Virus record (IMG/VR): IMGVR_UViG_3300045988_109756
Coordinates: 1-36,638 of that record
Origin: a virus
Length of the DNA stretch: 36,638 nt
Strand: one strand, 5' to 3'
The notes beneath the pieces were generated by a model that made no database searches, was not told where the DNA came from, and saw nothing but the letters and a program-made list of their open reading frames with translations. The number at the start of each line of letters is the position of its first letter. Position 1 is the stretch's first letter. Below, piece after piece: positions 1 to 35,912 of the stretch. The position numbers and the translations under genes are program-made.

Positions 1-77
1 GTCCGCTAAAATTTGGGTTGCTTTGGGCGGCCCTAATGTGTGGATTGATACGGCGGAAAGGGCGGTAAAATTGGCAT
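1..77. repeat. 77-bp terminal overlap identical to 36562-36638 (closure of a circular contig)
   Basis: Read directly: gtccgctaaaatttgggttg...ggcggtaaaattggcat occurs at both window ends, and a CDS reads through the junction in frame. Confidence 0.9.
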
Positions 78-163
78 GGTGCACAGACCGTGAGGAATAT
101 ATGCTCGATGGGGATGTTTGCGAAGAAATCGACGACATAATGCAAGAAATTTATGAGGATTGA
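1..163 (+). CDS. 3' part of a junction-spanning hypothetical protein (5' part at 36401-36638; about 107 aa in total)
   Basis: The frame opened by ATG 36401 continues through the 77-bp overlap and ends at TGA 161-163. Position 1 is the third base of a codon. Confidence 0.6.
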   Translation, partial: SAKIWVALGGPNVWIDTAERAVKLAWCTDREEYMLDGDVCEEIDDIMQEIYED

Positions 164-177
164 AAGGAGAATAAACC

Positions 178-726
178 ATGAAAAACCAGTATTCTAAATT
201 CGTTAAATATCTCGAAAAGCAAGATAACATTTTTGTTCAGCGCTCCGGCGAGTCGGTTTATCTGACGGATGGGAAAGTTGTGCTAATGGTTCCTGTTGTC
301 CTCTATGATAACATGATTCGGCCGTTGTCTGGCCTACTGCCGGAACTAAAAGAGGATTGCACCGGGGAAAAACGTCTTTCCGATGTCCTGGTTACTGTTC
401 GCCCGGACGGAATGAATATTAAGAAAGCCGTGGACAATCTCAGCACGGAAAAGCCCATCAGGCAAAGCCGGTTTTTAATCGAGCTGCCGCCGAAAGGCAA
501 AAGCAAGAAGAACATCCCTTGCCGGATTTTTAGGGCTGACGGCGGCGACATTATCGCCGTGAATGAAATCTTTGTGGATATGTTCGCAAATTGCAATATT
601 GCTGATACCTGGACGGGTGCGGGCCGTTGGGATACCCCGCTTGTAAAGAGATCTGATGGTTTTATGATGGTTATGTTCCCCGTGAAGATTAACCCGGAAT
701 ATTTCGAGATTTGGAAAGAGGTGTAA
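178..726 (+). CDS. hypothetical protein, distant paralog of the ORF at 28831-29346
   Basis: 182-aa ORF with RBS aaaggag 7 nt upstream of the ATG. It shares SKFVK.L, VLM.P, C(V)RIF and FP motifs with the 28831 ORF. Confidence 0.65.
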   Translation: MKNQYSKFVKYLEKQDNIFVQRSGESVYLTDGKVVLMVPVVLYDNMIRPLSGLLPELKEDCTGEKRLSDVLVTVRPDGMNIKKAVDNLSTEKPIRQSRFLIELPPKGKSKKNIPCRIFRADGGDIIAVNEIFVDMFANCNIADTWTGAGRWDTPLVKRSDGFMMVMFPVKINPEYFEIWKEV

Positions 727-729
727 ACT

Positions 730-957
730 ATGAAATATTTTTGGATTGCTGCTATTGTGCAGGAAAACGGGCGGCATTATGCTTTTGCTTTCAGAGTATC
801 CGAAAACGACAATTTGAAATGCCGGTTAGACGGTGTACAAAATCTATCTTCTGCAAACATCATGCCCACAAAGAAAGCCGCCCGTGATCTTGTCACTTTT
901 TGGAATGATGGTTTCAAGGCAAACGGAACATATTTATTTGACAAGCCGGGTTTTTAA
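730..957 (+). CDS. hypothetical protein
   Basis: 75-aa ORF tightly packed after the previous stop, with an agaggtg RBS. Confidence 0.55.
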   Translation: MKYFWIAAIVQENGRHYAFAFRVSENDNLKCRLDGVQNLSSANIMPTKKAARDLVTFWNDGFKANGTYLFDKPGF

Positions 958-969
958 GGGGGTTGCAAT

Positions 970-1236
970 ATGAATATTGATAGCATTATGAAAGAGCTTG
1001 CGGAGTATATCCGCATGGGTGAACAGATCGCCGCCACGGTGGACGGCCTGAAAGACCAGTTAAAACAGATCATGCGAGAGCAGAACACGGACACCCTAAC
1101 AGGAACGCAGCACAAAGCCTGTTATAAGGCCGTTACAAGCTCCAGGATCGACACGAAAGCGTTAAAACAGGAATTGCCCGATGTAGCCGCCAAATACAGC
1201 AAGACGACGGAAACAAAGCGCTTTACATTCTCTTGA
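970..1236 (+). CDS. hypothetical coiled-coil protein resembling the C-terminal domain of the 27784-28827 exonuclease ORF
   Basis: 88-aa ORF with RBS aaggggg. The tail LTGTQHKACYKAVTSSRIDTKALKQELPDVAAKYSKTTETKRF aligns with IAGSAYNWEVSRTSTTKIDKDAMKADGILAKYTTTEDSYRI. Confidence 0.6.
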   Translation: MNIDSIMKELAEYIRMGEQIAATVDGLKDQLKQIMREQNTDTLTGTQHKACYKAVTSSRIDTKALKQELPDVAAKYSKTTETKRFTFS

Positions 1237-1266
1237 ATATTTGATATTTTAGTAGGGGGTGATAAT

Positions 1267-1344
1267 ATGATTCTGTTTTATATTCTAGCTATTCTGTTTT
1301 TCCCGGTTGCATGCATCCTAGAGGCGTCGAAAAATTTTAAATAA
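1267..1344 (+). CDS. 25-aa hydrophobic peptide (MILFYILAILFFPVACILEASKNFK)
   Basis: Strong RBS gggggtga 5 nt before the ATG. It has a single TM-like segment with a charged tail and is followed directly by a terminator. It is too short for the ORF track. Confidence 0.4.
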   Translation: MILFYILAILFFPVACILEASKNFK

Positions 1345-1359
1345 TCGTGTCCGGCAGCT

Positions 1360-1388
1360 GCCCCCGATCCCGGGGGCGGCTTTTTTTT
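1360..1388 (+). terminator. rho-independent terminator ending island cassette B
   Basis: GCCCCCG/CGGGGGC stem with a 4-nt loop, then a T8 run at 1381-1388. Confidence 0.8.
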
Positions 1389-1543
1389 GCGCTTTCGGCC
1401 TGATCGGGGCGGCGGGAATGGGTGCCGGGGGTGGGGGATATAGGCGCAGCGATCGACGCCGGGTAAGGGGCTAATGGCGATTTGCGTACAAAAAGGCATT
1501 TTTTGGCAGGCACTTCTGAAAAATCCGCAAAAATTAAAAAGGC

Positions 1544-1659
1544 AATTAACACATAAGTGTAATGAACCTCTATAAACTCTCTATAGGTTACATTTACTAC
1601 ATATAAGTAAACTACTACTAGAAAAAAGATAGACACCTCATTACAGTTATGTGTTAATT
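1544..1659. repeat. pair of 22-bp inverted repeats (21/22 complementary) flanking a 72-bp AT-rich core
   Basis: AATTAACACATAAGTGTAATGA at 1544-1565 versus TCATTACAGTTATGTGTTAATT at 1638-1659. Each arm is itself a partial dyad (ATTAACAC-ATAA-GTGTAAT). Confidence 0.85.
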
Positions 1660-1713
1660 TCAGACAGGGGTGGAGTAAAGTTAAATGAGTATCCCTCTTA
1701 TTTTATTCAGTCA

Positions 1714-1767
1714 ACTGAAAATATTTTGTACTTCTCTATTGACAACTGAATTATTTCAGTGTATCAT
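1714..1767 (+). promoter_or_regulatory. promoter A with operators (-35 TTGACA 1739-1744, -10 TATCAT 1762-1767)
   Basis: 17-nt spacer. The perfect palindrome ACTGAA-TTAT-TTCAGT (1745-1760) fills the spacer. An upstream 16-nt box ACTGAAAATATTTTGT lies at 1714-1729. The same 54-bp block recurs at 36092-36145. Confidence 0.75.
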
Positions 1768-1787
1768 ATCATCAAGAGGTGATTGGA

Positions 1788-2123
1788 ATGTATATCAACC
1801 AAGCCATTAGAAGCCTGATGAAAAGCAAAAACATTTCTCTTCTTTCGATGGCGAAATCTTTAGGTAAACAGCGTGGAAATGAAATCAGTTCCAGACTGAG
1901 AAGCGAAAATATGTCATTTAACAGCGCAGTAGAAATGTTAAATGTCCTTGGATATGAAATCGTTATTCAGGAAAGAAAAGCAGGGGTTCGTAGAGCCGAT
2001 CAAATTGTTATAGATCAGGCGGATGAAAGAAAATACGATCTTGCCGCTTTATTAGAAACAAATGAAGGTCAAAATACAAAAATTACTTCGATTGGTAAGA
2101 GCGGTAAAATACAGTTGAGGTAA
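1788..2123 (+). CDS. XRE-like helix-turn-helix regulator
   Basis: RBS aagaggtga precedes the ATG. The segment NISLLSMAKSLGKQRGNEISSRLRSENMSFNSAVEMLNVLGYEIVI matches an HTH_XRE pattern. It is the first gene after the operator-bearing promoter A. Confidence 0.6.
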   Translation: MYINQAIRSLMKSKNISLLSMAKSLGKQRGNEISSRLRSENMSFNSAVEMLNVLGYEIVIQERKAGVRRADQIVIDQADERKYDLAALLETNEGQNTKITSIGKSGKIQLR

Positions 2124-2127
2124 TTCC

Positions 2128-2469
2128 ATGAACGAGAAAGGAGAGATGAAGTTGAGTTGTGTAAATCGGGTTGTTCCGCACGATGAAGTCATCAAGAAAG
2201 ACGGTACTGTCGTTATTCCATCCATCTTCATGTTCAAGGGCGGAGCGGGAGAGTGCTATCCCTTCCTGAAAATGTGCGGGGACAATAACTGCATTGTTCA
2301 CTTCAAAAATGAAAATCTGACCATTTATCCTGATCGGCAAGATGACAGTGTATCCCTGAAACTTCTCATTTATCTTGCGATTGCAGGAAGTCATGAGTTT
2401 GGCGATGACTTCATTCGATACCTTGGTAACATGGAGAAAATGTCGTGGGAAGCGGTGAATGTTCAATGA
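2128..2469 (+). CDS. hypothetical protein, translationally coupled to the recombinase
   Basis: 113-aa ORF. Its stop overlaps the recombinase start in an ATGA arrangement at 2466-2469. Confidence 0.55.
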   Translation: MNEKGEMKLSCVNRVVPHDEVIKKDGTVVIPSIFMFKGGAGECYPFLKMCGDNNCIVHFKNENLTIYPDRQDDSVSLKLLIYLAIAGSHEFGDDFIRYLGNMEKMSWEAVNVQ

Positions 2470-3086
2470 AATACTTCCTTGGTCGTGTGTCCAGCAAGGA
2501 ACAGAACCTTGCTCGGCAGCTCAAGGTCGCTCGTGAGAAGTTCGATATTCCTGACGAGAATGTGTACTGCGACAAGATCACGGGAAGCAGCTTCGACCGT
2601 CCTCAGTACAATGCTCTGAAAGCCATTGTGCGGGAAGGTGATGAAGTCATCGTCAAGGAGTTCGACCGCTTTGGGCGCAATAAGGACGAAATGAAGCGAG
2701 AACTGGAATGGTTCAAGCGGAAAGGCGTGATCGTCCGTATCCTCGACATTCCGACCACGCTGATTGACTTCAAAGACCAGACATGGGTGCTGGAAATGGT
2801 CAACAACATTCTGATCGAAGTCCTTGGCGCTGTTGCCGAGCAGGAGCGCAAGAAGACCAAGCAGCGGCAGGCTGAGGGCATCGCCGCCATGCCGGTTGTC
2901 GATGGCAAGCGGGTGTCGGTGAAGACCGGCAGAGGGTTCGGCAGACCCGCTTCCGAGATTGATGACGAGCAATTTGAAAAACTCGCTCAAAAACAAAAAG
3001 ACGGTCTTATTACCGTGGCGGACTGCTGCCGGGAGCTTGGTATCAGCCGCTCTACATGGTATGACCGGGTAAGAAAGGTTGGTTAA
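2466..3086 (+). CDS. small serine recombinase (resolvase/invertase family) with C-terminal HTH
   Basis: The N-terminus YFLGRVSSKEQ carries the catalytic Ser. DRFGRN and the E-helix VAEQERKKTKQRQAEGI are present. The C-terminal HTH is CCRELGISRSTWYDRV. Confidence 0.85.
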   Translation: MKYFLGRVSSKEQNLARQLKVAREKFDIPDENVYCDKITGSSFDRPQYNALKAIVREGDEVIVKEFDRFGRNKDEMKRELEWFKRKGVIVRILDIPTTLIDFKDQTWVLEMVNNILIEVLGAVAEQERKKTKQRQAEGIAAMPVVDGKRVSVKTGRGFGRPASEIDDEQFEKLAQKQKDGLITVADCCRELGISRSTWYDRVRKVG

Positions 3087-3087
3087 A

Positions 3088-3729
3088 ATGCAAATAATTT
3101 CTAACATCTGTTCCTCTGTGGCCGCTCTCGAATTGATAGCTGCCCCTGTTCTCTTGGTGATTTGGATTATCCGAAAGATTAGAAAGAAGCCGAAATGGAA
3201 ATGGTTCAAGTGGTTTTGGATTTCCTTTGCGGCGGTTGTTGCAGTCGGTGTAATTACTTCTTCGAATACGTGGAATAAGCAGGACAAACCAGCAACAATT
3301 AACAGCTCAAACGAGGTTGTTGAAAATACAGAACCCGATAGTAGGCAAGATGGCAGCGGGGAGTCCGAAACTACCTCTGAGCAGGAAACCGAGAATGAAG
3401 AAGATACAGTAGGAACCGCTACTTTCGAGGAAATCTACAAAGCATACAAGGAAAACGAACTGGTTGCTGATGACTTGTATCAATACAATCGTTACCAAGT
3501 AACAGCTGAAATAAACAGTATGACCAATGACGGGTTATTCAATCTAACAGGTGGTGCTACTCTGACATTGGAGAAAAGAGTTGACAACACAATCGTATTC
3601 TTCTACGCCGAGTTTGAGAAAGAACAAGAGGAAAATCTCAAAGCCGTCAAGGTCGGTGACACAATCACCTTTATTGGCGAATGTATGAGTGCTGGGAGTT
3701 GGGTTGACTGTGAATTGATTGTGGAGTGA
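3088..3729 (+). CDS. two-TM membrane protein with acidic linker and C-terminal OB-fold (tRNA_anti-like) domain
   Basis: Two hydrophobic segments sit near the N-terminus. The C-terminal pattern YKENELVADDLYQYNRYQVTAEI...VKVGDTITFIGEC is typical of tRNA_anti-like OB folds. Confidence 0.6.
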   Translation: MQIISNICSSVAALELIAAPVLLVIWIIRKIRKKPKWKWFKWFWISFAAVVAVGVITSSNTWNKQDKPATINSSNEVVENTEPDSRQDGSGESETTSEQETENEEDTVGTATFEEIYKAYKENELVADDLYQYNRYQVTAEINSMTNDGLFNLTGGATLTLEKRVDNTIVFFYAEFEKEQEENLKAVKVGDTITFIGECMSAGSWVDCELIVE

Positions 3730-3746
3730 TATGTATAAGGCTAGCC

Positions 3747-3781
3747 GAGGGACTACCTCTTTCGAGATAGCCCCTCTTTTT
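3747..3781 (+). terminator. rho-independent terminator ending island cassette A, just upstream of terL
   Basis: A 13-nt stem with 11/13 paired (GAGGGACTACCTC / GAGATAGCCCCTC), loop tttc, then a T5 run. Confidence 0.65.
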
Positions 3782-3800
3782 ATCTGGAAAGGAAATGCAC

Positions 3801-5435
3801 ATGAATTATGAAAAACTCTCTGGATCTATCCGAGCCGTGATCGACCGCCGACCGAGAGATAATAGAGCGTACAGTGACCTCTTTTCTCTGTGCCGGGAGT
3901 GGGAAACCGAGGATTTCTCGGCGGCACATAAAGTGAACAAGGAGCTGCTGGCTCTTTCCGCAGATCAGGTAGTCCGTGGAGACGGGGCGAAGTTCTATGA
4001 ACAGTGGCGTCGGTGTCTGCTGTTTGAGGCTCCGTATGATTTTGATTCTTTTCTCTTATACATTGAGCTGAATCGAGAGGCAAACAAACGGTTTTACCCT
4101 CCACGCCGTAGAGTGTTGAAGCAGGTAGTGGACAAGCTGCAGATGCTGGCGGATGATAAATTGGATTTGTTGGCAGTAAGTCTTCCACCAGGTACGGGAA
4201 AGACGACGCTTGCCATCTTCTATCTGACGTGGCTGGCGGGGAGATTTCCAAATGAACCGATGCTAACCGGCAGTCATTCTACGTCTTTTGTTCGCGGTGT
4301 ATACGACGAATGTCTACGTATCTTTGATGCGAATGGTGATTATCTGTGGAATGACGTATTCCCGGGTGTTCGGGTTTCTAATACAAATGCAAAGGATTGC
4401 CGGATAGATTTAGACAAGCGGCAGCGTTTTGAGACGTTGGAGTTTACTTCAATCGGGACCGGCAATGCCGGACTTTACCGTGCGGCGCGATTGTTATACT
4501 GTGATGACCTTGTATCCGGTATTGAGGTCGCGCTTTCGAAGGAACGTCTTGATAAGCTGTGGGAAACATACACAACGGACCTGCGGCAGCGTAAGATTGG
4601 CGATCATTGTAAAGAGCTTCATATCGCTACAAGGTGGTCAATCCACGATGTAATAGGACGATTAGAGCGAGAATATGACGGGAGCGATAGGGCCTGTTTT
4701 ATTGCCATTCCTGCGACGAACGAAGACGGCGAGTCGAATTTTGACTATGCCTACGGTGTTGGGTTTTCCACACAGTTTTATAAAGAGCAGAGAAACATCA
4801 TGGATGATGTTTCGTGGAAGGCGTTGTACATGAATAAACCGATAGAGCGGGAGGGTCAGCTTTACAACGAAGACGAGTTGCGGCGATACTTCGAGTTGCC
4901 GGAAACCGCTCCTGACGCTATCATTTCTGTATGTGACACGAAGGACCGAGGCGCTGACTACTGCGTAATGCCGATCGCATATCAGTACGGGAATGATTAT
5001 TATATCGAAAAGATCATCTGTGACAATTCGAACCCCGAGGTGGTGGAGTCAAGGCTGGTTCAGGCGTTGGTAGATCATCATGTCTACGGTTCGAGATTTG
5101 AATCAAATTCTGCCGGAGGACGTGTTGCCGAGAACGTACAAAATGGTGTGAAGGCACAAGGCGGTAGAACTAGAATTACGACCAAATACACGACAGCTAA
5201 CAAAGAAACACGTATCATTCTAGCTGCCGGGTTCGTTAAAGAGCGATTCTTATTTAAGGACGATATTGTAATAAAACAGGATCGAGAATATAGGAAAGCT
5301 CTTGATTTTTTGTGCGGATATACGATGGCAGGCAAGAATAAGCATGATGACGTACCCGATGCGTTTTCAATGCTGGTCGATTACATTGACAGTTTGAGTG
5401 AGAATACGATCAAGGTAGTAAAAAGACCGTTCTGA
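3801..5435 (+). CDS. terL: terminase large subunit
   Basis: Walker A PPGTGKTT, Walker B LLYCDD and a C-terminal nuclease-like half. RBS ggaaaggaa precedes the start. An alternative ATG lies at 3795. Confidence 0.9.
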   Translation: MNYEKLSGSIRAVIDRRPRDNRAYSDLFSLCREWETEDFSAAHKVNKELLALSADQVVRGDGAKFYEQWRRCLLFEAPYDFDSFLLYIELNREANKRFYPPRRRVLKQVVDKLQMLADDKLDLLAVSLPPGTGKTTLAIFYLTWLAGRFPNEPMLTGSHSTSFVRGVYDECLRIFDANGDYLWNDVFPGVRVSNTNAKDCRIDLDKRQRFETLEFTSIGTGNAGLYRAARLLYCDDLVSGIEVALSKERLDKLWETYTTDLRQRKIGDHCKELHIATRWSIHDVIGRLEREYDGSDRACFIAIPATNEDGESNFDYAYGVGFSTQFYKEQRNIMDDVSWKALYMNKPIEREGQLYNEDELRRYFELPETAPDAIISVCDTKDRGADYCVMPIAYQYGNDYYIEKIICDNSNPEVVESRLVQALVDHHVYGSRFESNSAGGRVAENVQNGVKAQGGRTRITTKYTTANKETRIILAAGFVKERFLFKDDIVIKQDREYRKALDFLCGYTMAGKNKHDDVPDAFSMLVDYIDSLSENTIKVVKRPF

Positions 5436-5460
5436 TTTCTATATATTGCGGTTTTGAGTA

Positions 5461-5489
5461 TTGACATATACTACATGTTGTGGTATAGT
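5461..5489 (+). promoter_or_regulatory. strong sigma70-type promoter with extended -10
   Basis: TTGACA at 5461-5466, a 17-nt spacer, then TGgTATAGT at 5481-5489. Confidence 0.7.
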
Positions 5490-5510
5490 TAGCTTGAAGA
5501 AATAGAATGA

Positions 5511-5781: not shown

Positions 5782-5795
5782 GTTTGGAGGTTAAT

Positions 5796-7283
5796 ATGGC
5801 GGACGGGGCAATGGAGATTAAACAGAAAGCAGAATATATCGGTCGCAGAAAGATTTACTGCCCGGTCGATTTCGTCACGAAGGAGAATGTTATTTCCGTA
5901 GTGAATCAAATTCTCTCCCTTCACACTGAAAATATGCTGAGTGAAGAGTACCTGTATTGGTATCGGCGGGGTGTGCAGCCTATTCTGGAACGAGTGAAGC
6001 AGGTTAGACCTGAAATTAACAATAAGGTCGTAGAAAATCACGCTGCCGAGATTGTAGCGTTTAAAAACGGGTATTTTCTGACACAACCTGCGTTCTACAT
6101 TGCGAGAAGAGACGTTGATGAGGTCAACACCAAGGTACAAATTCTCAATGAGATGCTGTATCTATCTGGGAAACAGAATGCCGACAATCAGCTGACAGAC
6201 TGGTTTCACACGGTAGGTGTTGGGACGTTATACGTTGAACCGTACGATGATTCGGAATGTCCGATTAGAGCTTACGCATTGGACCCTCGCTCTGCGTTTG
6301 TGGCGTATAGCCGCAGACCTGGTAATGATCCGCTTTTGGGTGTAAATCTCGTCATATCTGGAAAAAAAGAGTCTAACGTGGAGCTTACACTTGATGTATT
6401 TACCCGAAGGAAGTACTTCAAGCTGCGTGGTGGAATGACCGGGATGGTAATCACCGGGGCACCGGTCGTCGCGACGGCTTATGAGGTAGTTGAAGAGCGG
6501 GAGAACGTTCTAGGCGAGATTCCTATCATTGAGTATCAATACGAGAATAATCGGTTGAGTGCGTTTGAATCTGTCATTCCGTTGCTTGATGCAATTAACA
6601 CGGTCGAAAGTAACCGGATGGATGGTATTGAGCAGTTTATTCAATCGCTGATGATTTTTTATAACTGTCAGCTTGGCGAAGATGAGAAAGGCAATCAAAT
6701 CACACCAAAGCATATCCGAGAGGCTGGTGCTATTTTTCTAAAGTCTGTTGGACAAGACAAGGCGGACTTGAAAATCTTATCAGAGCAGCTAGACCAGACT
6801 CAGACGCAGGTCATGATTGACTACATGTATCAGCAGGTGCTTTCCATCTGCGGTATGCCGTCTACGACAAAGGGCGGCACGTCCACGAGTGATACCGGGG
6901 CGGCTGTGCTTTACCGTGACGGATGGTACCAGGCAGATACGTATGCGAGAAACACAGAGGACCTCTTCAAAGTATCGAATCGGTATTTCGATCGAATCTT
7001 TACAAAAATTCTGAGATTGAAGGGTGTTGTGGATATCTCCCTAGCAGATTTTGAGATTCAGTTTACCCGGAATGAGACAGCTAACCTTCTGGTTAAGACG
7101 CAGGCCGCATTGAATTTGAAAAACCTGGGGTTCTCACCCGAGCTTGCGTTTGGGAAATCCGGCGTATCGAGTGATCCGGTCGCAGATGTGGCGTTGTGCA
7201 GAAAATACATTGATAATCTGTGGGGAACTAGTCAGCCATCCGTTGAGCAAATTGACGAGGTCAGGACGAATGTAGATGCTTAG
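5796..7283 (+). CDS. portal protein
   Basis: About 495 aa, immediately after the terL region and before the scaffold and capsid genes. RBS ggagg precedes the ATG. Confidence 0.8.
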   Translation: MADGAMEIKQKAEYIGRRKIYCPVDFVTKENVISVVNQILSLHTENMLSEEYLYWYRRGVQPILERVKQVRPEINNKVVENHAAEIVAFKNGYFLTQPAFYIARRDVDEVNTKVQILNEMLYLSGKQNADNQLTDWFHTVGVGTLYVEPYDDSECPIRAYALDPRSAFVAYSRRPGNDPLLGVNLVISGKKESNVELTLDVFTRRKYFKLRGGMTGMVITGAPVVATAYEVVEERENVLGEIPIIEYQYENNRLSAFESVIPLLDAINTVESNRMDGIEQFIQSLMIFYNCQLGEDEKGNQITPKHIREAGAIFLKSVGQDKADLKILSEQLDQTQTQVMIDYMYQQVLSICGMPSTTKGGTSTSDTGAAVLYRDGWYQADTYARNTEDLFKVSNRYFDRIFTKILRLKGVVDISLADFEIQFTRNETANLLVKTQAALNLKNLGFSPELAFGKSGVSSDPVADVALCRKYIDNLWGTSQPSVEQIDEVRTNVDA

Positions 7284-11410: not shown

Positions 11411-11868
11411 GCTACTGTTCTTCCGGAGATAAGAGGGGCGGAGGCGACACACGCCCCGCCGCTCTTTTTGCTTACACTGAGACGTTTTATGCGGAATTTC
11501 CGTATTACCTGGCTATCGGTATGACCTATGAGCAGTTTTGGGAACAGGACTGCGAACTGGTGAAATATTACCGTGAAGCGGCAAAAATAAGCCGGAATCT
11601 TAGGAACCAAGAAGCTTGGTTACAAGGTAGTTATTTTTACGAGGCATTACTAGACGCCTCTCCTGTATTCAGATCACTTGCTAAGAAGGGCACAAAGCCT
11701 GTTCCGTACAGAGACGCCCCTTATGACATGTGTGACAATCATGACAAGGAAAGCAGAAAACGAAAACAGGATAAGGAGGACGAGAAAGCTAAGGCTTATA
11801 TGCAAGCATTGGCGGTATCAATCAATAGGAGATTCCAGAAAAAGGAAGGTGACGTAAGTGAGCGATAA
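11066..11868 (+). CDS. tail assembly chaperone G-T fusion product (via -1 frameshift at 11386)
   Basis: The -1 frame continues ..GKRKLEDQSVG..LFAYTETFYAEFPYYLAIGMTYEQFWEQD.. up to just before the tape measure gene. This is the classic G/G-T arrangement. Confidence 0.65.
11380..11386 (+). promoter_or_regulatory. -1 programmed ribosomal frameshift heptamer G GGA AAC
   Basis: An X XXY YYZ motif lies in the zero frame of the gpG-like ORF. The -1 frame is open from 11377 to 11868. A GC hairpin GGGGCG..CGCCCC follows at about 11435-11460. Confidence 0.75.
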
Positions 11869-14590
11869 TGTAGAGATGCAGGGCCTTGAATTTAAAATTA
11901 TAAACGACAGCAAAGCGGCAAACGAAAGCCTGGACGATCTCACTAAGACGCTTCGTCGCTTGGGTGATGCAACGAAAAATGGAGAATCCGGGTTAGAAAA
12001 AACGTCAAGGGGGCTTCAAAACGTTGCGCGTAGCAGTTCGAGGCTCCTGAGTGCATTTAGTTTTGCAAAGTTTTTTGCAATTTACCATACCGGAAAGAAA
12101 TCCATCGGTAAACTTATTTCCGCATCCGCCGAGTATACAGAAAACATGAACCTGTTTACTGTGGCTATGGGCGAATACGCAGATAAGGCAAAGGCTTTTG
12201 CGGATAAGGCTTCTAGCGTTCTAGGCCTGGACCCGTCAGATTGGGTACGTAACCAGGGCATTTTCCAGACGTTGCTTACAGGTTTTGGTGATTCAGCGGA
12301 CCGTGCGGCAATTATGAGTCAGAATCTGACACAACTCGGTTACGACCTCAGCTCTTTCTTTAATATCCCTGTTTCAGACGCTATGCAGAAGTTACAGTCT
12401 GGTATATCCGGTGAGTTGGAGCCGTTACGTAGGCTTGGTTATGACCTATCCCAAACCAGACTCGAACAGGAAGCTGTCACTCTCGGAATTCAGAAAAACG
12501 TTTCCGCGATGAATCAGGCAGAAAAAGCAGAGCTGCGCTACCATGCAATTCTAACTCAGGTTACAACCGCACAAGGCGACCTGGCCAGAACGCTAGATGA
12601 CCCGGCAAACCAGATGCGAGTGATGCAAGCTGAAATCGCACAAACCACTCGGGCGTTGGGTGATTTATTCATCCCAATTCTTAATAACGTATTGCCGTAC
12701 CTCATTGCATTTGCTAGAGCACTGCGTGAAATTCTAACGTATCTCGGAGCCTTCGGTAGGGCAGGCGGCACGAAGGAAACAAGCTTTGTCACAAAAAGCA
12801 TCAGCCAGAATACAAAAGCCATCGCTGGATATGTCGATGATGCAGCTAACGGTTTCAAGGCCGCGACGAAGGCCGCAAAAAGTCTCTTAAATTACACAAT
12901 GGCGATTGATGAGCTAAACGTCATCAGTCCACCTGCAAGCGGTGGCTCCGGTGGCGGCGGTTCCGGTGGCGGCGGTGGCTCTGATATCGGCGGGGGCGGC
13001 GGTTTTGATTTTGACCTGCCGACGTATGATTTCTTTGAGGGACTAGTCGACACACAGGTTGATGAGATTATGAAGAAGCTCAGACCGATGATCGATTGGA
13101 TTAAAAAGAATCTGAAAACGATTAAAAAGCTGGTCATTGCAATCGGAGCCGGTCTACTGATGTGGAAGCTAACAAAAACGTTTACCGGAGATTTGCTAAC
13201 AATGTCTCAATTGTTAGGGACCTTCACTTTTACGGCAGGCGTTACGCTCCTGCTAGAAAACTTCGACGCGATAGCAAGCGGAGAATATACGATAACCAGT
13301 TTGCAAGGTATTATTACGACAGCACTAGGCGGCGCGTTGACCTCTGCTGGCTTTGGTCTAGTTGTCGGTGCCTCCGCTGGGACGTTGGCAATTATGATTC
13401 CCGTTGGCGCGGTTTTGTCGCTACTTATCACAGACGTGGTTGTAAATTTCGACGACTACAGGAGTATTGCTGCTGATCTGGGCGGTATAGTGTCCGGTAT
13501 AGTAAACGGTGACGATGCTGGTACAAATTCTAGTTTTAATTCACTTATCGCTACGTATCTAACCTCAGACTCTCTCGGAACGTCCCTATTCCAATCGTTA
13601 ATGTCTAGGATGTATACCGATACAGAACAGGGCCAGATTTTGGCGATGGCAAATACCGGGAATCTGGATTTTAGTAAATTATTGGAGCAGATAAAAGAAG
13701 ACGTTTCGGGTTTCTTCTCTAGTTTCTTCACGGGGGCGGTAGACGATATTAGTTCTTTCTTCGGACCCGTCGTCGAGGCGATAAGCTCACCGTTTGTAAG
13801 TGCTTGGGAAAGTATTAAGGGGGCGTGGGCCACTGTCAGCACCTGGTTCGATACAAATGTAACCCAGCCCGTTGGCGGATTTTTTAAGAAACTTGGAGGA
13901 CAGATTTCAAGGTTTGTCAACGATCCAATCGGTTCTATCCGCAAAATGTGGGCCACTGTCAGCACCTGGTTTGATAAAAATATAACTCAGCCCATTGGCG
14001 GATTTTTTAAGAAACTTGGGGGACAGATTACAAAGTTTTTCAACGACCCAATCGGTTCTATCCGCAAAATGTGGAAAACAGTCAGCACCTGGTTCGATAA
14101 AAATATAATTCAGCCTGTTGGTGGATTCTTCAAGAAACTTGGTGAAGATATCGGTAAGTTTTTCACAAAGCCTATCGAAACGATCAAGCGGACGTGGTTA
14201 AGTATCGTTAGTTGGTTCAACACTAATATTGTCGACCCGATCCGCAATGCGTTTCAATCGATAATACCTTCATCGCACGGTCAAAAGCTAAAAGTTGTTG
14301 ACGCTCGTGAGTATGGTACGACGTCCACGATGCAAGATTACAGTCACGCTTTCGGTTATGCGGTTGCTTCGATAAATAGTAAAAACACGACCCTGAATAA
14401 GTCGATGACAGATGCCGATGAAGACATTGTAAAGGCCATTTACGACACGTCTTCGCAAATCGTCACTGCGATTGAACGCAATCGTCCTTTCGTATCTATC
14501 GGTGATGACACCATCGGGCGTGCTAACAAGAGGTTCGAACAGAAAACCGGAAACAATCATGTGAAGGGAGCGTTTGCTTATGTCCGCTAA
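11858..14590 (+). CDS. tape measure protein
   Basis: 910 aa, with a Gly-run, a TM-rich middle region and tandem 41-aa repeats. It sits after the chaperone pair. Confidence 0.9.
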   Translation: MSDNVEMQGLEFKIINDSKAANESLDDLTKTLRRLGDATKNGESGLEKTSRGLQNVARSSSRLLSAFSFAKFFAIYHTGKKSIGKLISASAEYTENMNLFTVAMGEYADKAKAFADKASSVLGLDPSDWVRNQGIFQTLLTGFGDSADRAAIMSQNLTQLGYDLSSFFNIPVSDAMQKLQSGISGELEPLRRLGYDLSQTRLEQEAVTLGIQKNVSAMNQAEKAELRYHAILTQVTTAQGDLARTLDDPANQMRVMQAEIAQTTRALGDLFIPILNNVLPYLIAFARALREILTYLGAFGRAGGTKETSFVTKSISQNTKAIAGYVDDAANGFKAATKAAKSLLNYTMAIDELNVISPPASGGSGGGGSGGGGGSDIGGGGGFDFDLPTYDFFEGLVDTQVDEIMKKLRPMIDWIKKNLKTIKKLVIAIGAGLLMWKLTKTFTGDLLTMSQLLGTFTFTAGVTLLLENFDAIASGEYTITSLQGIITTALGGALTSAGFGLVVGASAGTLAIMIPVGAVLSLLITDVVVNFDDYRSIAADLGGIVSGIVNGDDAGTNSSFNSLIATYLTSDSLGTSLFQSLMSRMYTDTEQGQILAMANTGNLDFSKLLEQIKEDVSGFFSSFFTGAVDDISSFFGPVVEAISSPFVSAWESIKGAWATVSTWFDTNVTQPVGGFFKKLGGQISRFVNDPIGSIRKMWATVSTWFDKNITQPIGGFFKKLGGQITKFFNDPIGSIRKMWKTVSTWFDKNIIQPVGGFFKKLGEDIGKFFTKPIETIKRTWLSIVSWFNTNIVDPIRNAFQSIIPSSHGQKLKVVDAREYGTTSTMQDYSHAFGYAVASINSKNTTLNKSMTDADEDIVKAIYDTSSQIVTAIERNRPFVSIGDDTIGRANKRFEQKTGNNHVKGAFAYVR
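13825..14250 (+). repeat. 123-bp (41-aa) tandem repeat, about 3.4 copies, inside the tape measure gene
   Basis: Units start at 13825, 13948, 14071 and 14194. The peptide unit is W.TVSTWFD.N(I/V)(T/I)QP(V/I)GGFFKKLG..I..F...PI..I(R/K).. Confidence 0.9.
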
Positions 14591-18052: not shown

Positions 18053-18328
18053 ATGGAATTTCTGAATGATTATCTGGTCGCGGTCGTGGTTGGTATTTGC
18101 TTGTGTATCGGCTACGTTCTGAAACACGCAATCCCGTCGGACAAAATTAACCGCTTTATCCCGCTGCTGATGTTGGTGCTGGGCGCAATCGTCAACGTGT
18201 GGCTGCATGATTTTACCCTGTCGCCGGAAATTTTGCTTGGTGGCATGGCGTCCGGTCTGGCGTCGACGGGGATGCACCAGGCGTATAAACAGATGATTGA
18301 AGGTGGCGCAAATGCAGATCATAGCTAA
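18053..18328 (+). CDS. holin
   Basis: 91 aa with 2-3 TM segments (MEFLNDYLVAVVVGICLCIGYVLK.., IPLLMLVLGAIVNVWL), immediately upstream of the endolysin and overlapping it. Confidence 0.65.
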   Translation: MEFLNDYLVAVVVGICLCIGYVLKHAIPSDKINRFIPLLMLVLGAIVNVWLHDFTLSPEILLGGMASGLASTGMHQAYKQMIEGGANADHS

Positions 18329-19115
18329 ATACCTGACGCAGAATCCGTATTTCCGGGACGGGCGGTGGATCACAGGCCCAGCCTTCCGGGGGTTCTTCCT
18401 TCACTCCGTTGGCGTCGGTCAGCCGGACCCGCTGGTTTTCATCCGGCAGTGGGACAAGCCCAGCTTCACCTACGCTGGAATCAACGGATTCATTGGAGCC
18501 GATGCGGTCTATCTGACGGCCCCATGTTTGGAGACGCCGGGCAAGGTGAAGCGTATGCCCCACGCAGGGAAGCCTGCCGGGAACAATGGGTATATCGGTT
18601 TTGAGATGTGCGAACCGGCACAGATTCATTATACGGTCGGCGCAAGCTTTACCGTGCGGGACAAGGCTGCGGCCCAGGCGTATTGCCGCAAGACGTACCA
18701 GAACGCTGTGCAGCTCTTTGCACGGCTGTGCAGCTTCCACGGCAAGAACCCGCTGCAGAACGGTGTGATTCTGAGCCACAACGAAGGTGGAAAACGTGGT
18801 ATTGCAAGCGGACACGTCGACCCGGAGCATCTGTGGCGCGGCCTGGGTCTGCCGTATACGATGGCAGGATTCCGGCAAGATGTGGCAAGTGCAATGAAAC
18901 CAAAGGAGGAAATCGACATGACGAAAGCAGAAGTGGTGGCGCTGATCGACGAGCGCATCCAAGTGGCCCTAGAGGGAAAGAACACGACGGCAAGCGATTG
19001 GGCAAAGGAGGAGCTGGCCCAGGCGGTCGCGGCGGGGATCACCGACGGCACACGGCCGGGCGGCTACGCCAAACGCGAAGAAGTCGCAGCGATGGTGCTG
19101 CGGAGCCGCAAATAA
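18312..19115 (+). CDS. endolysin, N-acetylmuramoyl-L-alanine amidase (Amidase_2/PGRP-like)
   Basis: FFLHSVGV, NGYIGFEMCEP and SHNEGGKRGIASGHVDPEHLW motifs. It follows the holin. Confidence 0.75.
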   Translation: MQIIAKYLTQNPYFRDGRWITGPAFRGFFLHSVGVGQPDPLVFIRQWDKPSFTYAGINGFIGADAVYLTAPCLETPGKVKRMPHAGKPAGNNGYIGFEMCEPAQIHYTVGASFTVRDKAAAQAYCRKTYQNAVQLFARLCSFHGKNPLQNGVILSHNEGGKRGIASGHVDPEHLWRGLGLPYTMAGFRQDVASAMKPKEEIDMTKAEVVALIDERIQVALEGKNTTASDWAKEELAQAVAAGITDGTRPGGYAKREEVAAMVLRSRK

Positions 19116-19121
19116 GTCAAA

Positions 19122-19232
19122 TTAGGTGAGTTAGGTGAGTAATCGGGTTAAAATCCCTATAACTTCCTCTTAGTACGCGCGTATTAGAAAGAGTTTATAG
19201 GAAAAACACCCGATTACTCACCTTTATCACCT
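19122..19232. repeat. 111-bp extended imperfect palindrome, copy 1 (copy 2 at 35139-35249)
   Basis: The outer 26 nt and 24 nt are identical between copies. The arms GGTGAGTAATCGGG / CCCGATTACTCACC and CCTATAAC / GTTTATAGG surround the centre TACGCGCGTA. GGTGAG boxes with 9-bp spacing lie on each arm. Confidence 0.9.
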
Positions 19233-19238
19233 AAACGC

Positions 19239-19279
19239 AAAAAAAGACACTCTCTACCAATTAAGGTAAAGAGTGTCTT
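19239..19279 (-). terminator. rho-independent terminator of the integrase gene
   Basis: On the - strand, the stem AAGACACTCT/AGAGTGTCTT (overlapping the last int codons) is followed by a T7 run, seen as the A7 run at 19239-19245 on the + strand. Confidence 0.75.
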
Positions 19280-20922
19280 TTGGTTTGAACAAGAATCGAC
19301 CCGTATGCTATGTATGGTTCGACTCGAAATTCAATGGTACACGAGCATTGGCGATTCTCGAACCCCTTTGTTTTATCGGTAGGGTTCTTTTCAATCGTAA
19401 ACGTCCTAGTCGCCTTCGACGTGATGTTATATGCTGTGGTGATCTTATACCCGTCCGGTTCATCCCATACCGTAACTGAGTTAATCAGCAGGTCGACAAG
19501 TCGTCTACGGAACGTCTCATCCTCAATATCTCCCTGTTTAAACTGACTCAACCAAAATATAATCATATCACGGTCGATTTTGTAAATTCGCCCTTCTTCT
19601 AATTCAATCTCCTCGGCCAGCTCTTTTTTCTGCTGCTCAAGCTTGACTAGTCGGTTCATCAAAGAGTCAGATGCGATTCCCTTTTCTATAGCAGTCGTGA
19701 TATTTTCAATAGACTTCTCAACCTCTGTCATATGCGCTGTTAGCTGAGGAATGCGCGTTTTCTCAAACATATCCAGCTCACTCTGCCGGATTGCCATATC
19801 AGCAATCTCATCTATCAACTGATCGGTCAGGAGATTCAAAGCGTCTTGAACCACGATATCTTCAATATATTCTTTTCGTAACGGTCGTTTGTCGCAGCCG
19901 TTTCCATTTTTACGGTTGCTGCAGGAGTAGTAATGATACACAGTCCCGCGCCTGCCGGTTCCACATTCACCATTCATGTAAGCCCCACAGTGGCCGCAGA
20001 ACAGCTTTCCAGAAAGAATGTAATCTACCTTTCCAGTACCACGTGCGGGCGCTACAGCGGCTCTATCCATCCTCAGCTGCACTCTATCAAACAATTCTTT
20101 GTCGATGATTGCAGGAATGCCGTTTTCAATGTGAATATCCTTGTACTTGTAGGTGCCAATGTACCGAATATTTCTAAATATTGACCGGAAGCTATTGCAG
20201 TTGAACTCACCGTTTTTAGCGGTTCTATAACCTGCCGAATTAAATTTCCTGCAGATGTCGGCAATTCTCATGCCGTTGGCATAAAGCGTGAATGCTTCCT
20301 GGACGATATGTGCTGTATCAGGATTGACTACGAGTTTGTGATTCTCCACCTTGTAGCCGAGCGGAATATGTCCACCGATGCTTTGACATTTCATAGCAGA
20401 TTCGCGCATACCTCGCGACACCTTTTGGGAAAGCTCAGCGGAGAAAAATTCAGCCATACCTTCCAGCACAGATTCCAGGATGATACTTTCCGGGCTGTCC
20501 GTGAGGTGTTCTGTGGCGGAGAGGACTTTTACACCGTTCTTTCGCAGACGCATCTTCATAATCGCGCTGTCGTTACGGTTACGAGCGAACCGGTCAAGCT
20601 TCCAAACAACAACGTATTCCCAACGTCGCTTTGCGCTGTCGGAGATCAATTTTAGAAGGTGGACACGCTTTTCTATGCTTCTGGCGGTGGTTGCCCGATC
20701 AATATAAACCGCGACAATCCTGTAATTATTCGCTTTGCAAAAAGCACGGCAATCACGAAGCTGCCCTTCAATGGATTGGTCACTCTGGCCTGTGGAGCTG
20801 TATCGTAGATACAAAGCTACATTATGTTCACCGTTATATAGGGTGAAGGGATCCTCTTCAAATTGGGCCAATTCTTCTTCTGTTAACCACGAAAGATCAA
20901 TTGGAAATTTTGTAATTGACAT
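19261..20922 (-). CDS. int: large serine recombinase (integrase)
   Basis: Resolvase catalytic domain (LYLRYSSTGQS, LDRFARNRND), a recombinase domain, a zinc ribbon (CGHCGAYM..YYSCSNRKNGNGC) and a coiled coil. ATG 20922 is preceded by an aaggaaa RBS. Confidence 0.9.
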   Translation of the reverse strand: MSITKFPIDLSWLTEEELAQFEEDPFTLYNGEHNVALYLRYSSTGQSDQSIEGQLRDCRAFCKANNYRIVAVYIDRATTARSIEKRVHLLKLISDSAKRRWEYVVVWKLDRFARNRNDSAIMKMRLRKNGVKVLSATEHLTDSPESIILESVLEGMAEFFSAELSQKVSRGMRESAMKCQSIGGHIPLGYKVENHKLVVNPDTAHIVQEAFTLYANGMRIADICRKFNSAGYRTAKNGEFNCNSFRSIFRNIRYIGTYKYKDIHIENGIPAIIDKELFDRVQLRMDRAAVAPARGTGKVDYILSGKLFCGHCGAYMNGECGTGRRGTVYHYYSCSNRKNGNGCDKRPLRKEYIEDIVVQDALNLLTDQLIDEIADMAIRQSELDMFEKTRIPQLTAHMTEVEKSIENITTAIEKGIASDSLMNRLVKLEQQKKELAEEIELEEGRIYKIDRDMIIFWLSQFKQGDIEDETFRRRLVDLLINSVTVWDEPDGYKITTAYNITSKATRTFTIEKNPTDKTKGFENRQCSCTIEFRVEPYIAYGSILVQTKRHSLP

Positions 20923-21119
20923 ATATCTATTTCCTTTACACAATTTAACATGGCAAATTGAATAAAAAGTGCTATAATACTCTTGACACTAATACGTAGG
21001 AAGTATTTCTTTAGGACAGGATAGGAGTAGAGTATGTCATACCACTAATGAAAGCACAGTTTCCGAAGAGGAAGCTGTTGCAATGTTTGAAGCACTCAGC
21101 GCGGATCAACAGAAACATA

Positions 21120-21443
21120 TTATTTCTCTTTTACGAACTCTCGCATCGCCCCAAGCACAATCGATTTCTGTTCAGGTGTCAATTGACGGTACAAGGATTT
21201 AAATTCCGGAGAAAGCCCATCATCGGTTTCGGTGGTGAGCTTTTCTTTTTTATCGGTTTTTCCAATAAGATAATCAACAGATACGTCGAAATAAGATGCA
21301 ATTCTTGAAAGAATTTCCGGTTTGGGCAAGGCTCCGTTTTTCCAGCCAGTAATTGTACCCGACGAAACGCCTAATTCTTTCCCGACAGGGTTAGGTTTTT
21401 TACCCATTAACGTACATTCTTCAAGAAACCTTTCCCAAAACAT
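21120..21443 (-). CDS. XRE/CI-like repressor
   Basis: HTH segment PNPVGKELGVSSGTITGWKNGALPKPEILSRIASYFDVSVDYLIG. It is divergent from the early rightward promoter. Confidence 0.8.
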   Translation of the reverse strand: MFWERFLEECTLMGKKPNPVGKELGVSSGTITGWKNGALPKPEILSRIASYFDVSVDYLIGKTDKKEKLTTETDDGLSPEFKSLYRQLTPEQKSIVLGAMREFVKEK

Positions 21444-27251: not shown

Positions 27252-27797
27252 ATGGATAAGCCTGTTTTAGATGTTTGCTGTGGAGGGCGAATGTTTTATT
27301 TCGATAAAACAGACAGACGGGTTCTTTTCTGTGACAATCGGACGGTTGATACCGAATTGTGTGACGGAAGAAGATTTGTCGTAAACCCCGATGCTCAATG
27401 TGATTTCACCAATCTTCCTTTTGCTGATGGTTCATTCCGATTAGTCGTTTTCGACCCTCCACATTTGTTGCGAAATACAGGAAAGAGCAAAATGGCCGAT
27501 ATGTACGGCTCTTTGAACGAACGGTCAACTCCGACAGGTTATCAGCAAATCAAATATGGGGCTTTGTATTCTGACTGGCGTGATATGCTCAAACGCGGGT
27601 TTTCCGAATGTTTCAGGGTATTAGAGCCTAACGGTATTCTCATTTTCAAATGGAACGAGACTGATATTCCGGTGAAAGAAATTCTCAAACTCGTTGATAT
27701 TCCGCCCCTTTTCGGAAACCGCAGCGGTAAAAGAAGCAACACTCACTGGATATGTTTTATCAAATCAAGAAAGGAAGATGAAAATGGAATGGCTTGA
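27252..27797 (+). CDS. SAM-dependent DNA methyltransferase (N6A/N4C type)
   Basis: Motif I LDVCCGG and motif IV FDPPH. Confidence 0.6.
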   Translation: MDKPVLDVCCGGRMFYFDKTDRRVLFCDNRTVDTELCDGRRFVVNPDAQCDFTNLPFADGSFRLVVFDPPHLLRNTGKSKMADMYGSLNERSTPTGYQQIKYGALYSDWRDMLKRGFSECFRVLEPNGILIFKWNETDIPVKEILKLVDIPPLFGNRSGKRSNTHWICFIKSRKEDENGMA

Positions 27798-31351: not shown

Positions 31352-31386
31352 ATATTCGTTCTTGGTGTCCACCGGAGGTAGACCGT

Positions 31387-35824: not shown

Positions 35825-35826
35825 GT

Positions 35827-35903: not shown

Positions 35904-35912
35904 GACAGAGCT

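Follow-up and report, generated by a model that had tools for sequence, protein, structure and literature searches.

A probable accessory-gene hotspot between the terminase genes of temperate siphoviruses from gut Clostridia

In IMG/VR virus record IMGVR_UViG_3300045988_109756 (positions 1 to 36,638, a stretch of 36,638 nucleotides (nt) analysed here over its whole length and called the window), the genes for the small and large terminase subunits, terS and terL, are separated by 4,537 bp (35825-36561 plus 1-3800). The first 77 nt of the window equal its last 77 nt, giving a circular genome of 36,561 bp, and the gap spans the circle junction; an earlier note made from the DNA letters alone (hereafter the original prediction) had put the separation correctly at about 4.5 kb. 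We propose, with a probability of roughly 0.72, that the interval serves as a moron hotspot, a slot for accessory genes that is conserved in position, hypervariable in content and refilled with self-regulated cassettes, and that a large clade of temperate siphoviruses infecting gut Clostridia (Oscillospirales and relatives) shares it. The term moron, as Juhala and Hendrix used it for lambdoid phages, denotes extra genes with their own promoter and terminator that lie between the genes of an operon. By sequence, the island between terS and terL has its own promoters, its own terminators and a deviant G+C content, and it is replaced in relatives at the same position.

A search with TerL provided a comparison set of 80 IMG/VR loci and 32 genome loci (each denoted below by L and a number). 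Because related prophages are present in assemblies of Flavonifractor, Dysosmobacter, Oscillospiraceae and Acutalibacteraceae, the phage is a temperate siphovirus of gut Clostridia. Both genes can be seen in 62 loci; in every one of them terL is preceded by terS at a distance of 2.6-7.6 kb (median 4.4 kb), and the gap is kept even at TerL identities of 38-44% (L104, L106 and L109). The cultured Clostridium phage Maintenon is organized in the same way, with terS at 26723-27472, terL at 30124-31761 and a gap of 2.65 kb that contains hypothetical genes and two tRNAs and, as annotated, no recombinase. terS and terL are adjacent only in distant TerL relatives (25-27% identity), namely Tuc2009, ul36 and S. 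thermophilus phages. As judged from gene order across these loci, the split is ancestral for a large clade and not a recent insertion. The original prediction of two tandem autonomous cassettes stands, but the further step, that they had been dropped into the packaging operon, fails since 62 of 62 loci and Maintenon have the gap. It had also set an insertion against a block carried by all related phages; when aligned, the relatives all carry the slot, but not the same content.

The content of the slot is diverse, with about 115 distinct gene families over the 62 loci. The gap of the window holds ten open reading frames (ORFs) and a 25-amino-acid (aa) hydrophobic ORF, all on the + strand (genes g1 to g10, Table 1). 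Among 113 loci no homologues of g1-g3 were found, g5-like genes occur in 16-22, the helix-turn-helix (HTH) gene represented by g7 in 13 and g10 in 4. In other members of the clade the slot carries, among others, Ant/Bro antirepressor, HNH, FtsK-like, Mrr type IV nuclease, ArdA and nSTAND genes, most of the cargo being unannotated; known defence domains were few in a set of 115 representative gap ORFs. Shared flanks around a differing interior are seen in L114, L104, L081, L207 and L212. L114 is the closest relative: the two late regions share 98.5% identity, and its slot contains three swapped sub-modules with breakpoints at 36044/36385, 738/954 and 1441/3009. The promoter P1 and g1 are replaced there by another promoter and operator, and the promoter P2, g7, g8 and most of g9 have given way to a promoter unlike P2 and the gene for a 257-aa Resolvase+Recombinase protein. 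In L104 (Dysosmobacter segnis) terS is 96% identical at the amino-acid level, similarity ends at 36044 and resumes at 3768, and nothing is shared in between; the terS copies of L081, L104 and L114 are 94-96% identical. Beyond the slot, only the first ∼300 nt of the L104 terL are similar (84% nt identity, window 3768-4105 versus L104 7968-8305), with the whole TerL being 44% identical. Since terS and the terL 5′ end are similar while the interior is swapped, the terS gene and the 5′ end of terL would travel together, and the N-terminal region of TerL appears to be inherited with terS, as expected of a region that contacts TerS.

The positions at which similarity is lost and regained recur between relatives. 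At the left joint it ends at 36044 (L104, L114 and L232), 36012 (L081) or 36090-36099 (L207/L212), the joint between the cassettes (1373-1452) is conserved in L114, L207, L232, L167 and L175, and at the right joint similarity resumes at 3768 (L104), 3777 (L212) or 3737 (L135). Taken over the loci, recurrent breakpoints fall at 36012-36099, at a 19-nt repeat around g1 that carries a ribosome-binding site (RBS), at 1373-1482, at 2955-3009 (recombinase gene, 3′ end) and at 3737-3777. Breakpoints at terminators, RBSs and gene ends are as expected of homologous recombination at short conserved joints. The 19-nt RBS-plus-start segment, GAAAGGrGTTTTTACAATG, is duplicated at 36177-36195 and 36385-36403, ahead of g1 and g2. 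Because this segment flanks g1, and the L114 promoter is joined directly to g2 with g1 missing, g1 seems to have been gained or lost as a unit through recombination at the repeat.

The island has a G+C content of 44.2%, compared with 48.2% for the genome and 50.7% for the early region, which bears out its description as richer in A+T than the replication module. This value is within the lowest 0.8% of equal-sized windows, and the content is uneven inside the island (31-68%). Its features are arranged in what would be two autonomous cassettes, cassette 1 consisting of P1, g1-g6 and the terminator T3, and cassette 2 of P2, g7-g8-g9-g10 and T4. The genes g7-g10 are packed as a single operon, in which the g8 stop and the g9 start overlap (ATGA) and the g10 ATG lies one base past the g9 stop. 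The original count of about 12 ORFs is reduced to 10-11, among which the HTH protein, the serine recombinase, the protein with two transmembrane helices and an OB-like domain and the 25-aa ORF are all present as described.

Two near-identical sigma70-type promoters with one shared palindromic operator had been proposed, and both the promoters and the sharing are evident. P1 and P2 are contained in a 51-nt direct repeat (82% identical), and the palindrome ACTGAATwAwTTCAGT fills both promoter spacers, with half-palindromes flanking it. Allowing up to three mismatches, the genome has 9 matches to this palindrome versus 1.25 expected, all of them at the P1 and P2 regions. The P1 control region is a 98-bp near-palindrome with 32-nt inverted arms (36081-36112 and 36147-36178). 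The operator block of P1 and P2, located around cassette 1, is the only internal direct repeat in the island. None of the 80 IMG/VR loci examined contains an exact copy of the operator, ACTGAANNNNTTCAGT. Control of the island promoters by CI was considered and rejected, as the CI/Cro region of the window lacks the operator. A 22-nt inverted repeat (1544-1565 and 1638-1659, 95% complementary) surrounds a 72-nt A+T-rich segment between T3 and P2; it is part of the P2-HTH module, which is replaced in L114.

Of the four terminators originally proposed, T1 and T3 are strong and T2 and T4 are weaker hairpins, and at T4 a consensus terminator scan made no call. The T4 hairpin is followed by the tail CTCTTTTT. 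T4-like strong hairpins with a T-run are found upstream of terL in 41 of the 62 loci (folding free energy, dG, −10 to −27). They belong to several sequence families, measure 36-42 nt and end 4-43 nt before the terL ATG, or 155 nt before it in one locus (L078). A hairpin this close to terL leaves no space for a promoter. Unless it serves a different purpose, RNA polymerase must pass through terminators to reach the late genes; the hairpin may be a terminator overcome by antitermination or an RNA element of another kind. A 22-nt G+C-rich segment, TTyCGGCCTGATCGGGGCGGCG, occurs both after T3 (1393-1414) and after the terS terminators (36000-36021), and is kept in close relatives only. This spacer motif and a second motif, AAAAATCCGC, were considered as recombination sites and dropped because they are not broadly conserved among the loci. 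Next to the terS stop codon lies an array of CGACTTT heptamers that accounts for seven of the eight forward copies in the genome; L114 has a longer one in this position. The array may be bound by a protein and is possibly a candidate for pac.

g7 itself reaches no further than phrog_8522 (5e-4), and no PDB sequence relatives were found for it as a single sequence. Within its family, 5 of 14 members match Pfam HTH_3 (best 3.8e-7) and the family profile has HipB as its best PDB match (6e-4); on these profile matches the family is Xre/Cro-C1-like. In other loci the HTH gene also lies behind a consensus promoter with a site in its spacer, and this site changes with the HTH type (5 sequence types). 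It is TTCGGwTATTTCCGAA in L035, L010 and L004, ACTAAACTTGTTTAGT in L056 and CTTCACTCnAAAGTG in L047 and L089. The same spacer site is found again just downstream of terS in L035, L010 and L004, and operator-type promoters with an HTH gene occur in L002, L004 and L008 where no recombinase is matched. We assign the operators to g7 and not to g9 because the sites co-vary with the HTH type and such units occur without a recombinase. g7 is thus a likely operator-binding autoregulator, and both cassettes of the window are probably one g7-controlled regulon. The gene that follows, g8, has only 10 homologues, all unnamed. A toxin-antitoxin pair of HipB-like g7 with g8 was rejected, as g8 has no family and the HTH gene in the loci is usually directly followed by the recombinase gene.

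The g9 product matches Pfam Resolvase (9.7e-22) and phrog_125 (5e-37), and its closest solved relatives are Sin/Bin3 (PDB, 5.8e-16) and gamma-delta resolvase. The catalytic residues R8, S10, R45, R68, R71, E118 and R125 are invariant across 36 aligned sequences, with gamma-delta as the reference. The C-terminal HTH_7 match is weak (0.0066, 17 bits versus a cut-off of 23.8 bits), and the tail GISRSTWYDR is conserved in 29 g9 relatives. g9 is therefore predicted from its residues to be an active small serine recombinase. In the loci, tblastn detects a serine recombinase in 54 of the 62 gaps, always on the terL strand; by better match, 39 loci have the small HTH type and 15 the ∼250-aa Resolvase+Recombinase type. 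A repeat search found no res- or hix-like site beside g9 in the window, and no inverted segments were seen in 127 pairs of near-identical loci. In L212 the recombinase gene has been exchanged as a single-gene module without conserved flanks. A 75-nt relic of a g9-type 3′ end lies at 12242-12316 of L114, downstream of the gene for the 257-aa Resolvase+Recombinase protein, so that here one recombinase class took the place of the other in situ.

The g10 product falls in phrog_8545, which is annotated as superinfection exclusion (Sie)-like (5.4e-13), with a further match to phrog_4980 (0.006). Its C-terminal domain matches PF12869 just under the cut-off (2.9e-4), and no PDB or NCBIfam match was obtained with the single sequence. 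The family has 706 homologues, many with PF12869, in which the N-terminal membrane anchor and the OB-like domain are conserved and the linker is variable; one source names a member ‘putative nucleic acid-binding lipoprotein’. The hydrophobic helices of g10 are at about residues 2-32 and 37-57, and only the order of secondary-structure elements was taken from its AlphaFold2 (AF2) model, which is of low confidence (pLDDT 49). The last ORF before terL has a transmembrane segment in 23 of 52 loci, compared with 76 of 354 for all + strand gap ORFs. The most likely role of g10, we propose, is at the membrane, in keeping out related phages. The superinfection exclusion role named among the possibilities in the original prediction is borne out to the extent that this one product belongs to a Sie-like PHROG.

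The claim that none of the small proteins matches a family was too strong, as g10 has its PHROG and g5 matches phrog_6244 as well as the C-terminal part of phrog_434. g5 aligns to positions 276-360 of 372 in phrog_434 and, by these alignments, resembles the C-terminal region of RecE/YqaJ-type exonuclease families, encoded as a gene of its own. A full YqaJ exonuclease is also encoded by the phage (27694-28827), to which the match of g5 is weak. In L306, which has the same integrase, an ERF annealase gene is present. The AF2 model of g3 (pLDDT 90.4) comprises about one and a half clamp domains. Foldseek relates it to beta-clamps in the PDB (E 2e-4, TM-score 0.39-0.44) and to uncharacterised gut-phage proteins in BFVD (TM-score 0.55-0.65). 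g3 has 107 unnamed homologues and no match in GenBank phages; it is predicted to have a DNA-sliding-clamp-like fold and to form a family with uncharacterised human-gut phage proteins. Its homologues occur as single genes in unrelated neighbourhoods (L115). Comparison of the island proteins with PADLOC and NCBIfam gave nothing meaningful, and no known defence or anti-defence model was matched.

Taken together, these features suggest how the slot might work. g7 would bind the operators and repress both its own operon and cassette 1, resulting in low expression by host RNA polymerase that is independent of the late programme of the phage. The envelope protein g10, with its two transmembrane helices, would sit at the membrane and exclude incoming related phages. 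The recombinase g9 would be active and, as its conservation throughout the clade indicates, form the selected core of the slot. Terminators on either side would insulate the cassettes, while terL and the late genes would be reached by antiterminated transcription or from an activator-dependent start. Content would be turned over by homologous recombination at the terminator/G+C spacers, the RBS segments and the places where the recombinase gene ends and terL begins. The sequences themselves show the anatomy of the gap, the slot throughout the clade, its mosaic turnover, the co-variation of operator and HTH type and the conservation of the recombinase; the binder of the operators, the timing of expression, the Sie function and antitermination are here inferred.

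Several observations weigh against this proposal. The L114 promoters carry two different operators and its slot encodes no HTH protein, so that a single HTH protein over both cassettes is not a general rule. Promoter scans found no promoter between the island and terL, and neither a late promoter nor an antiterminator was identified. The Sie call for g10 comes from PHROG annotation and topology only, and no characterised Sie protein was matched. PADLOC found no known defence protein among the island genes, only weak HTH-level matches (PDC-M64B, 2e-4). A near-universal recombinase is not expected of a pure cargo slot and hints at a core function. Finally, the same anatomy would also fit immediate-early genes expressed on infection.

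The question of a core function may be tied to a ∼110-bp palindromic element that the window contains in two copies, A and B (Table 1), which are 85-88% identical. The core of the element is quasi-palindromic, TATAACTT...TACGCGCGTA...AAGTTATA, and is conserved across phages. It is flanked by 2+2 inverted tandem iterons that vary by phage, being AGGTGAGTw in the window and GAAGTAGTT, TAGTAGGGT, GGGTAGAC or GAGGTATAA in others, and these tandem iterons suggest DNA bound by a protein and speak against an RNA hairpin. Extra direct iterons, AGGTGA(T/G)(A/T)A, are located at 35050-35083, ∼55 nt upstream of copy A, and none are found at copy B. Two exact-core scans of IMG/VR returned 72 stretches in one and at least 120 in the other. 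The element occurs in three contexts: directly before terS, next to a large serine integrase gene at its 3′ end, and directly before or after the gene for a serine recombinase (small or ∼250-aa type) near terL. Two copies with the same iterons are present in at least six contigs besides the window. The second copy lies beside a recombinase gene of the ∼250-aa type in L119, L146 and L084 and of the small type in L011, L012, L017, L018, L024, L027 and L028. In L028, L024, L119 and L146 the copies are 3.4-4.4 kb apart and bracket terS and the slot; the two copies of L146 have asymmetric cores that point in opposite directions. Which iterons are present agrees with the type of terS as well as with the C-terminal HTH of the small recombinases, so that recognition and linkage cannot be told apart. 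The element is a candidate pac or cos site (terS iterons around a cleavage core) or a candidate serine-recombinase site, and a tie between the element and the slot is possible on these co-occurrences.

Other readings of the element were tried. Its central 10 nt, TACGCGCGTA, are the centre of the N15 telRL and PY54 pal sites (PMC3540006), and in both cases the identical centre lies inside a larger palindrome. The window differs from these telomere systems in having no protelomerase-sized gene, and in having an element that is present in two copies, has variable iterons and lies near terS and serine recombinase genes; a protelomerase reading was therefore rejected for want of a candidate gene in the window, and the resemblance may be a coincidence of DNA structure. 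A long direct terminal repeat bounded by the element copies fits the 3.4-4.4 kb spacing in L028, L119 and L146 and not the 16/20.5 kb of the window, and was not adopted. A search for an integrated form with copy B as attP found the exact integrase only on phage-sized contigs (≤36.6 kb) with B intact.

It is possible, with the odds against it, that the cassettes, and above all cassette 1, are immediate-early genes for host takeover or anti-defence that are transcribed by the host RNA polymerase on entry, and not defence genes expressed from the prophage. Near-consensus sigma70 promoters need no phage factor, the products are small and mostly orphan, and g2 is strongly acidic (isoelectric point (pI) 4.1, 27% Asp+Glu), as are DNA-mimic anti-restriction proteins. 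The clamp-like fold of g3, the detached exonuclease piece in g5, and the ArdA and antirepressor genes in the same slot of relatives are in keeping with such a function, and if packaging starts near terS and proceeds towards terL the region would be at an end of the first packaged molecule. The shared operator with an autoregulated HTH protein and the membrane Sie-like gene fit steady, low expression in the lysogen better, however, and no island protein matches a known anti-defence family. We regard it as very improbable that the region is an ordinary late operon read through from upstream of terS, with promoter- and terminator-like sites that are chance matches. All gap genes are on the strand of terS and terL, no promoter separates the island from terL, and consensus scans do give chance matches, but chance would have to account for two 11/12 promoters in an 82%-identical 51-nt repeat with a significantly over-represented operator, for equivalent promoter/operator units before the HTH gene in relatives of unrelated sequence, and for strong hairpins with T-runs that recur at conserved positions.

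If the recombinase is primary, it would form, with or without the HTH protein, the core of the slot and take part in a genome processing tied to packaging, the other genes being passengers. This explanation, which overlaps with that of an accessory-gene slot, is in our estimation doubtful. Its possible mode of action is on the 110-bp elements, by circularising terminally redundant headful DNA or by inverting or excising the segment between copies. It would account for a recombinase with an intact active site and one orientation in 54 of 62 gaps, and for two structurally different classes at the same position (39 and 15 loci). It also draws on the element that is found twice per genome in the window and at least six contigs, one copy 5′ of terS and the other by a serine recombinase gene, on the inverted asymmetric cores of L146, and on the agreement of iteron type with the C-terminal HTH of the small recombinase. 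The nearest named relatives of TerL include Tuc2009, ul36 and S. thermophilus phages, and terS is P22 gp3-like. Headful packaging is the mode of the P335 group, and an analogy is offered by Cre/lox, which circularises the terminally redundant headful DNA of bacteriophage P1; a strong sigma70 promoter would permit expression right after injection. However, g9 in the window adjoins neither copy of the element, with copy B adjoining the large integrase gene instead, and the iterons track the terS type equally well, so that the element could be a pac or cos site. There are also no inversion or deletion isoforms among near-identical loci, and 8 of 62 gaps, as well as Maintenon as annotated, lack a recombinase. 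A narrower form, in which slot recombinase and element together make up a packaging-coupled site-specific recombination system with the cassettes as passengers in a structurally privileged region, is unlikely; its possible roles would be Cre/lox-like circularisation of headful DNA, inversion or excision of the terS segment, or exchange of arms between co-resident phages. Least probable is the suggestion in the original prediction of a hitchhiking cassette moved by its own recombinase. A serine recombinase is indeed encoded, the island is richer in A+T than its surroundings, and cassette 1 is bounded by the 51-nt direct repeats of P1 and P2, which contain three palindromic sub-sites apiece, much as in a res layout. 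This suggestion is contradicted by a slot and a recombinase kept at one position and in one orientation across the clade, by recombinase genes swapped alone (L212) or replaced with a 3′ relic left behind (L114), and by repeated sites that co-vary with the HTH protein and are present in loci without a recombinase. Furthermore, no repeats surround the whole island, the breakpoints differ between relatives, and g3 homologues appear singly in unrelated neighbourhoods.

Viewed as an accessory-gene slot, the interval resembles the lambdoid morons in its promoter-genes-terminator layout, its deviant composition, its presence or absence between close relatives and its position between genes that are adjacent in other phages. 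It differs from them as a multi-cassette slot that is kept clade-wide, with an operator/HTH circuit of its own and, nearly always, a recombinase gene. In Pseudomonas phage JBD26 the genes for Tab and anti-Tab lie between the terminase genes (PMC10884400), and there, as in the window, accessory cargo with its own promoter is located between terS and terL (PMC10884400). JBD26 is from an unrelated phage lineage and host, and has two small genes, one of them on the opposite strand, and no recombinase/HTH circuit. Variable defence hotspots of P2-like phages and P4-like satellites have reportedly been described by Rousset et al. in 2022. These share with the slot the conserved core genes that flank fast-exchanged cargo, including nuclease-type defence genes in some members, but the clade slot has few known defence domains, with none found in the window by PADLOC, and position, recombinase and regulation differ.

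Sie2009 and Ltp are superinfection exclusion membrane proteins or lipoproteins of Gram-positive prophages, with genes in the lysogeny module. The g10 product is like them in being small, predicted to be envelope-anchored and assigned to a Sie-like PHROG, in a cassette that would be expressible from the prophage; it is unlike them in being encoded outside the lysogeny module and in having a C-terminal OB-like PF12869 domain. With Sin/Bin3 (Tn552), gamma-delta/Tn3 and Hin/Gin, g9 shares the catalytic domain with its Ser and Arg residues, a length of about 200 aa and an HTH-like tail. These differ from g9 in that no adjacent res- or hix-like site was found for it, and in that it is within a four-gene operon between packaging genes. 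Literature searches returned no description of the slot or of the palindromic element. The slot is thus of a known kind with regard to morons in general and to Tab/anti-Tab of JBD26, and goes beyond it in its permanence, in its recombinase hallmark and in its possible tie to the element.

These results have consequences for annotation and for gene discovery. Annotation pipelines and readers take terS and terL to be adjacent; in this abundant group of human-gut Clostridia phages the two are always apart, and terS may be missed or the gap misread as an insertion. The slot is also a defined place in which to mine exclusion, defence and counter-defence genes of gut phages. The near-universal recombinase and the two-copy element suggest that site-specific recombination is connected with packaging in a way not described before, which, if true, would bear on circularisation, module exchange and perhaps the transduction of host DNA.

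Table 1. Coordinates of the features discussed, in window positions unless another locus is named.
Feature	Position	Strand	Remarks
terS (small terminase, P22 gp3-like)	35276-35824	+	left border of slot; Pfam GP3_package 8.4e-13 (48.8 bits, cut-off 29.4), phrog_606, phrog_309
CGACTTT heptamer array	35835-35903	+	7 copies, spacing 8-13 nt; directly after terS stop
Terminator T1	35907-35941	+	strong; dG −25
Terminator T2	35999-36017	+	weaker; in G+C-rich spacer
P1 control region	36081-36178	+	central operator 36123-36138; related sites 36092, 36152
Promoter P1	36117-36145	+	TTGACA-17-TATATT; sigma70 consensus 11/12
g1	36193-36384	+	63 aa, acidic, pI 4.6; no family; absent in L114
g2	36401-36561 and 1-163	+	spans junction; 107 aa; no family; present in L114
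g3	178-726	+	182 aa; DNA-clamp-like fold (predicted)
g4	730-957	+	75 aa; no family; L114 has a different 66-aa ORF instead
g5	970-1236	+	88 aa; phrog_6244 1.6e-12; phrog_434 7.8e-10
g6	1267-1344	+	25-aa hydrophobic putative ORF; conserved in L114
Terminator T3	1356-1381	+	strong; dG −24, then T8
P2 control region	1696-1767	+	operator 1745-1760; related sites 1696, 1714
Promoter P2	1739-1767	+	TTGACA-17-TATCAT; sigma70 consensus 11/12
g7	1788-2123	+	Xre/HipB-like HTH
g8	2128-2469	+	113 aa; no family
g9	2466-3086	+	small serine recombinase, resolvase/invertase type
g10	3088-3729	+	two transmembrane helices, acidic linker, C-terminal OB-like domain
T4 (hairpin and T-run)	3739-3772	+	weaker; dG −14 to −16; ends 29 nt before terL ATG
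terL (large terminase)	3801-5435	+	right border of slot; phrog_38, 2.4e-60; followed by portal gene
Portal	5784-7283		followed by structural genes
Endolysin	18297-19115		after structural genes
Palindromic element, copy B	19122-19232		between endolysin gene and 3′ end of large serine integrase gene
Large serine integrase	19261-20943	-	553 aa; Resolvase + Recombinase + Zn_ribbon_recom
CI-like HTH_3 protein	21120-21443	-	lysogeny gene
Helicase, YqaJ exonuclease, PriCT/D5 primase	early/replication region	+	
Palindromic element, copy A	35139-35249		ends 27 nt before terS ATG
Element copies in L028	2745-2870 and 7140-7270		
Element copies in L146	1445-1580 and 5100-5225		

Assignment of the two terminase genes is based on family matches above threshold and on the gene order terS ... 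terL-portal, and no PDB sequence relatives were found for TerL as a single sequence. Almost every gene of the window is on the + strand. A megablast of positions 1-5500 versus GenBank phages gave no match, and only the terS side of the window matched MT837742. Neither Rfam, at gathering thresholds, nor a tRNA scan returned anything from the whole window. The 910-aa ORF at 11858-14590, presumably the tape measure gene, contains three tandem 123-nt repeats at 13825-14193, the later two being 92% and 69% identical to the first.

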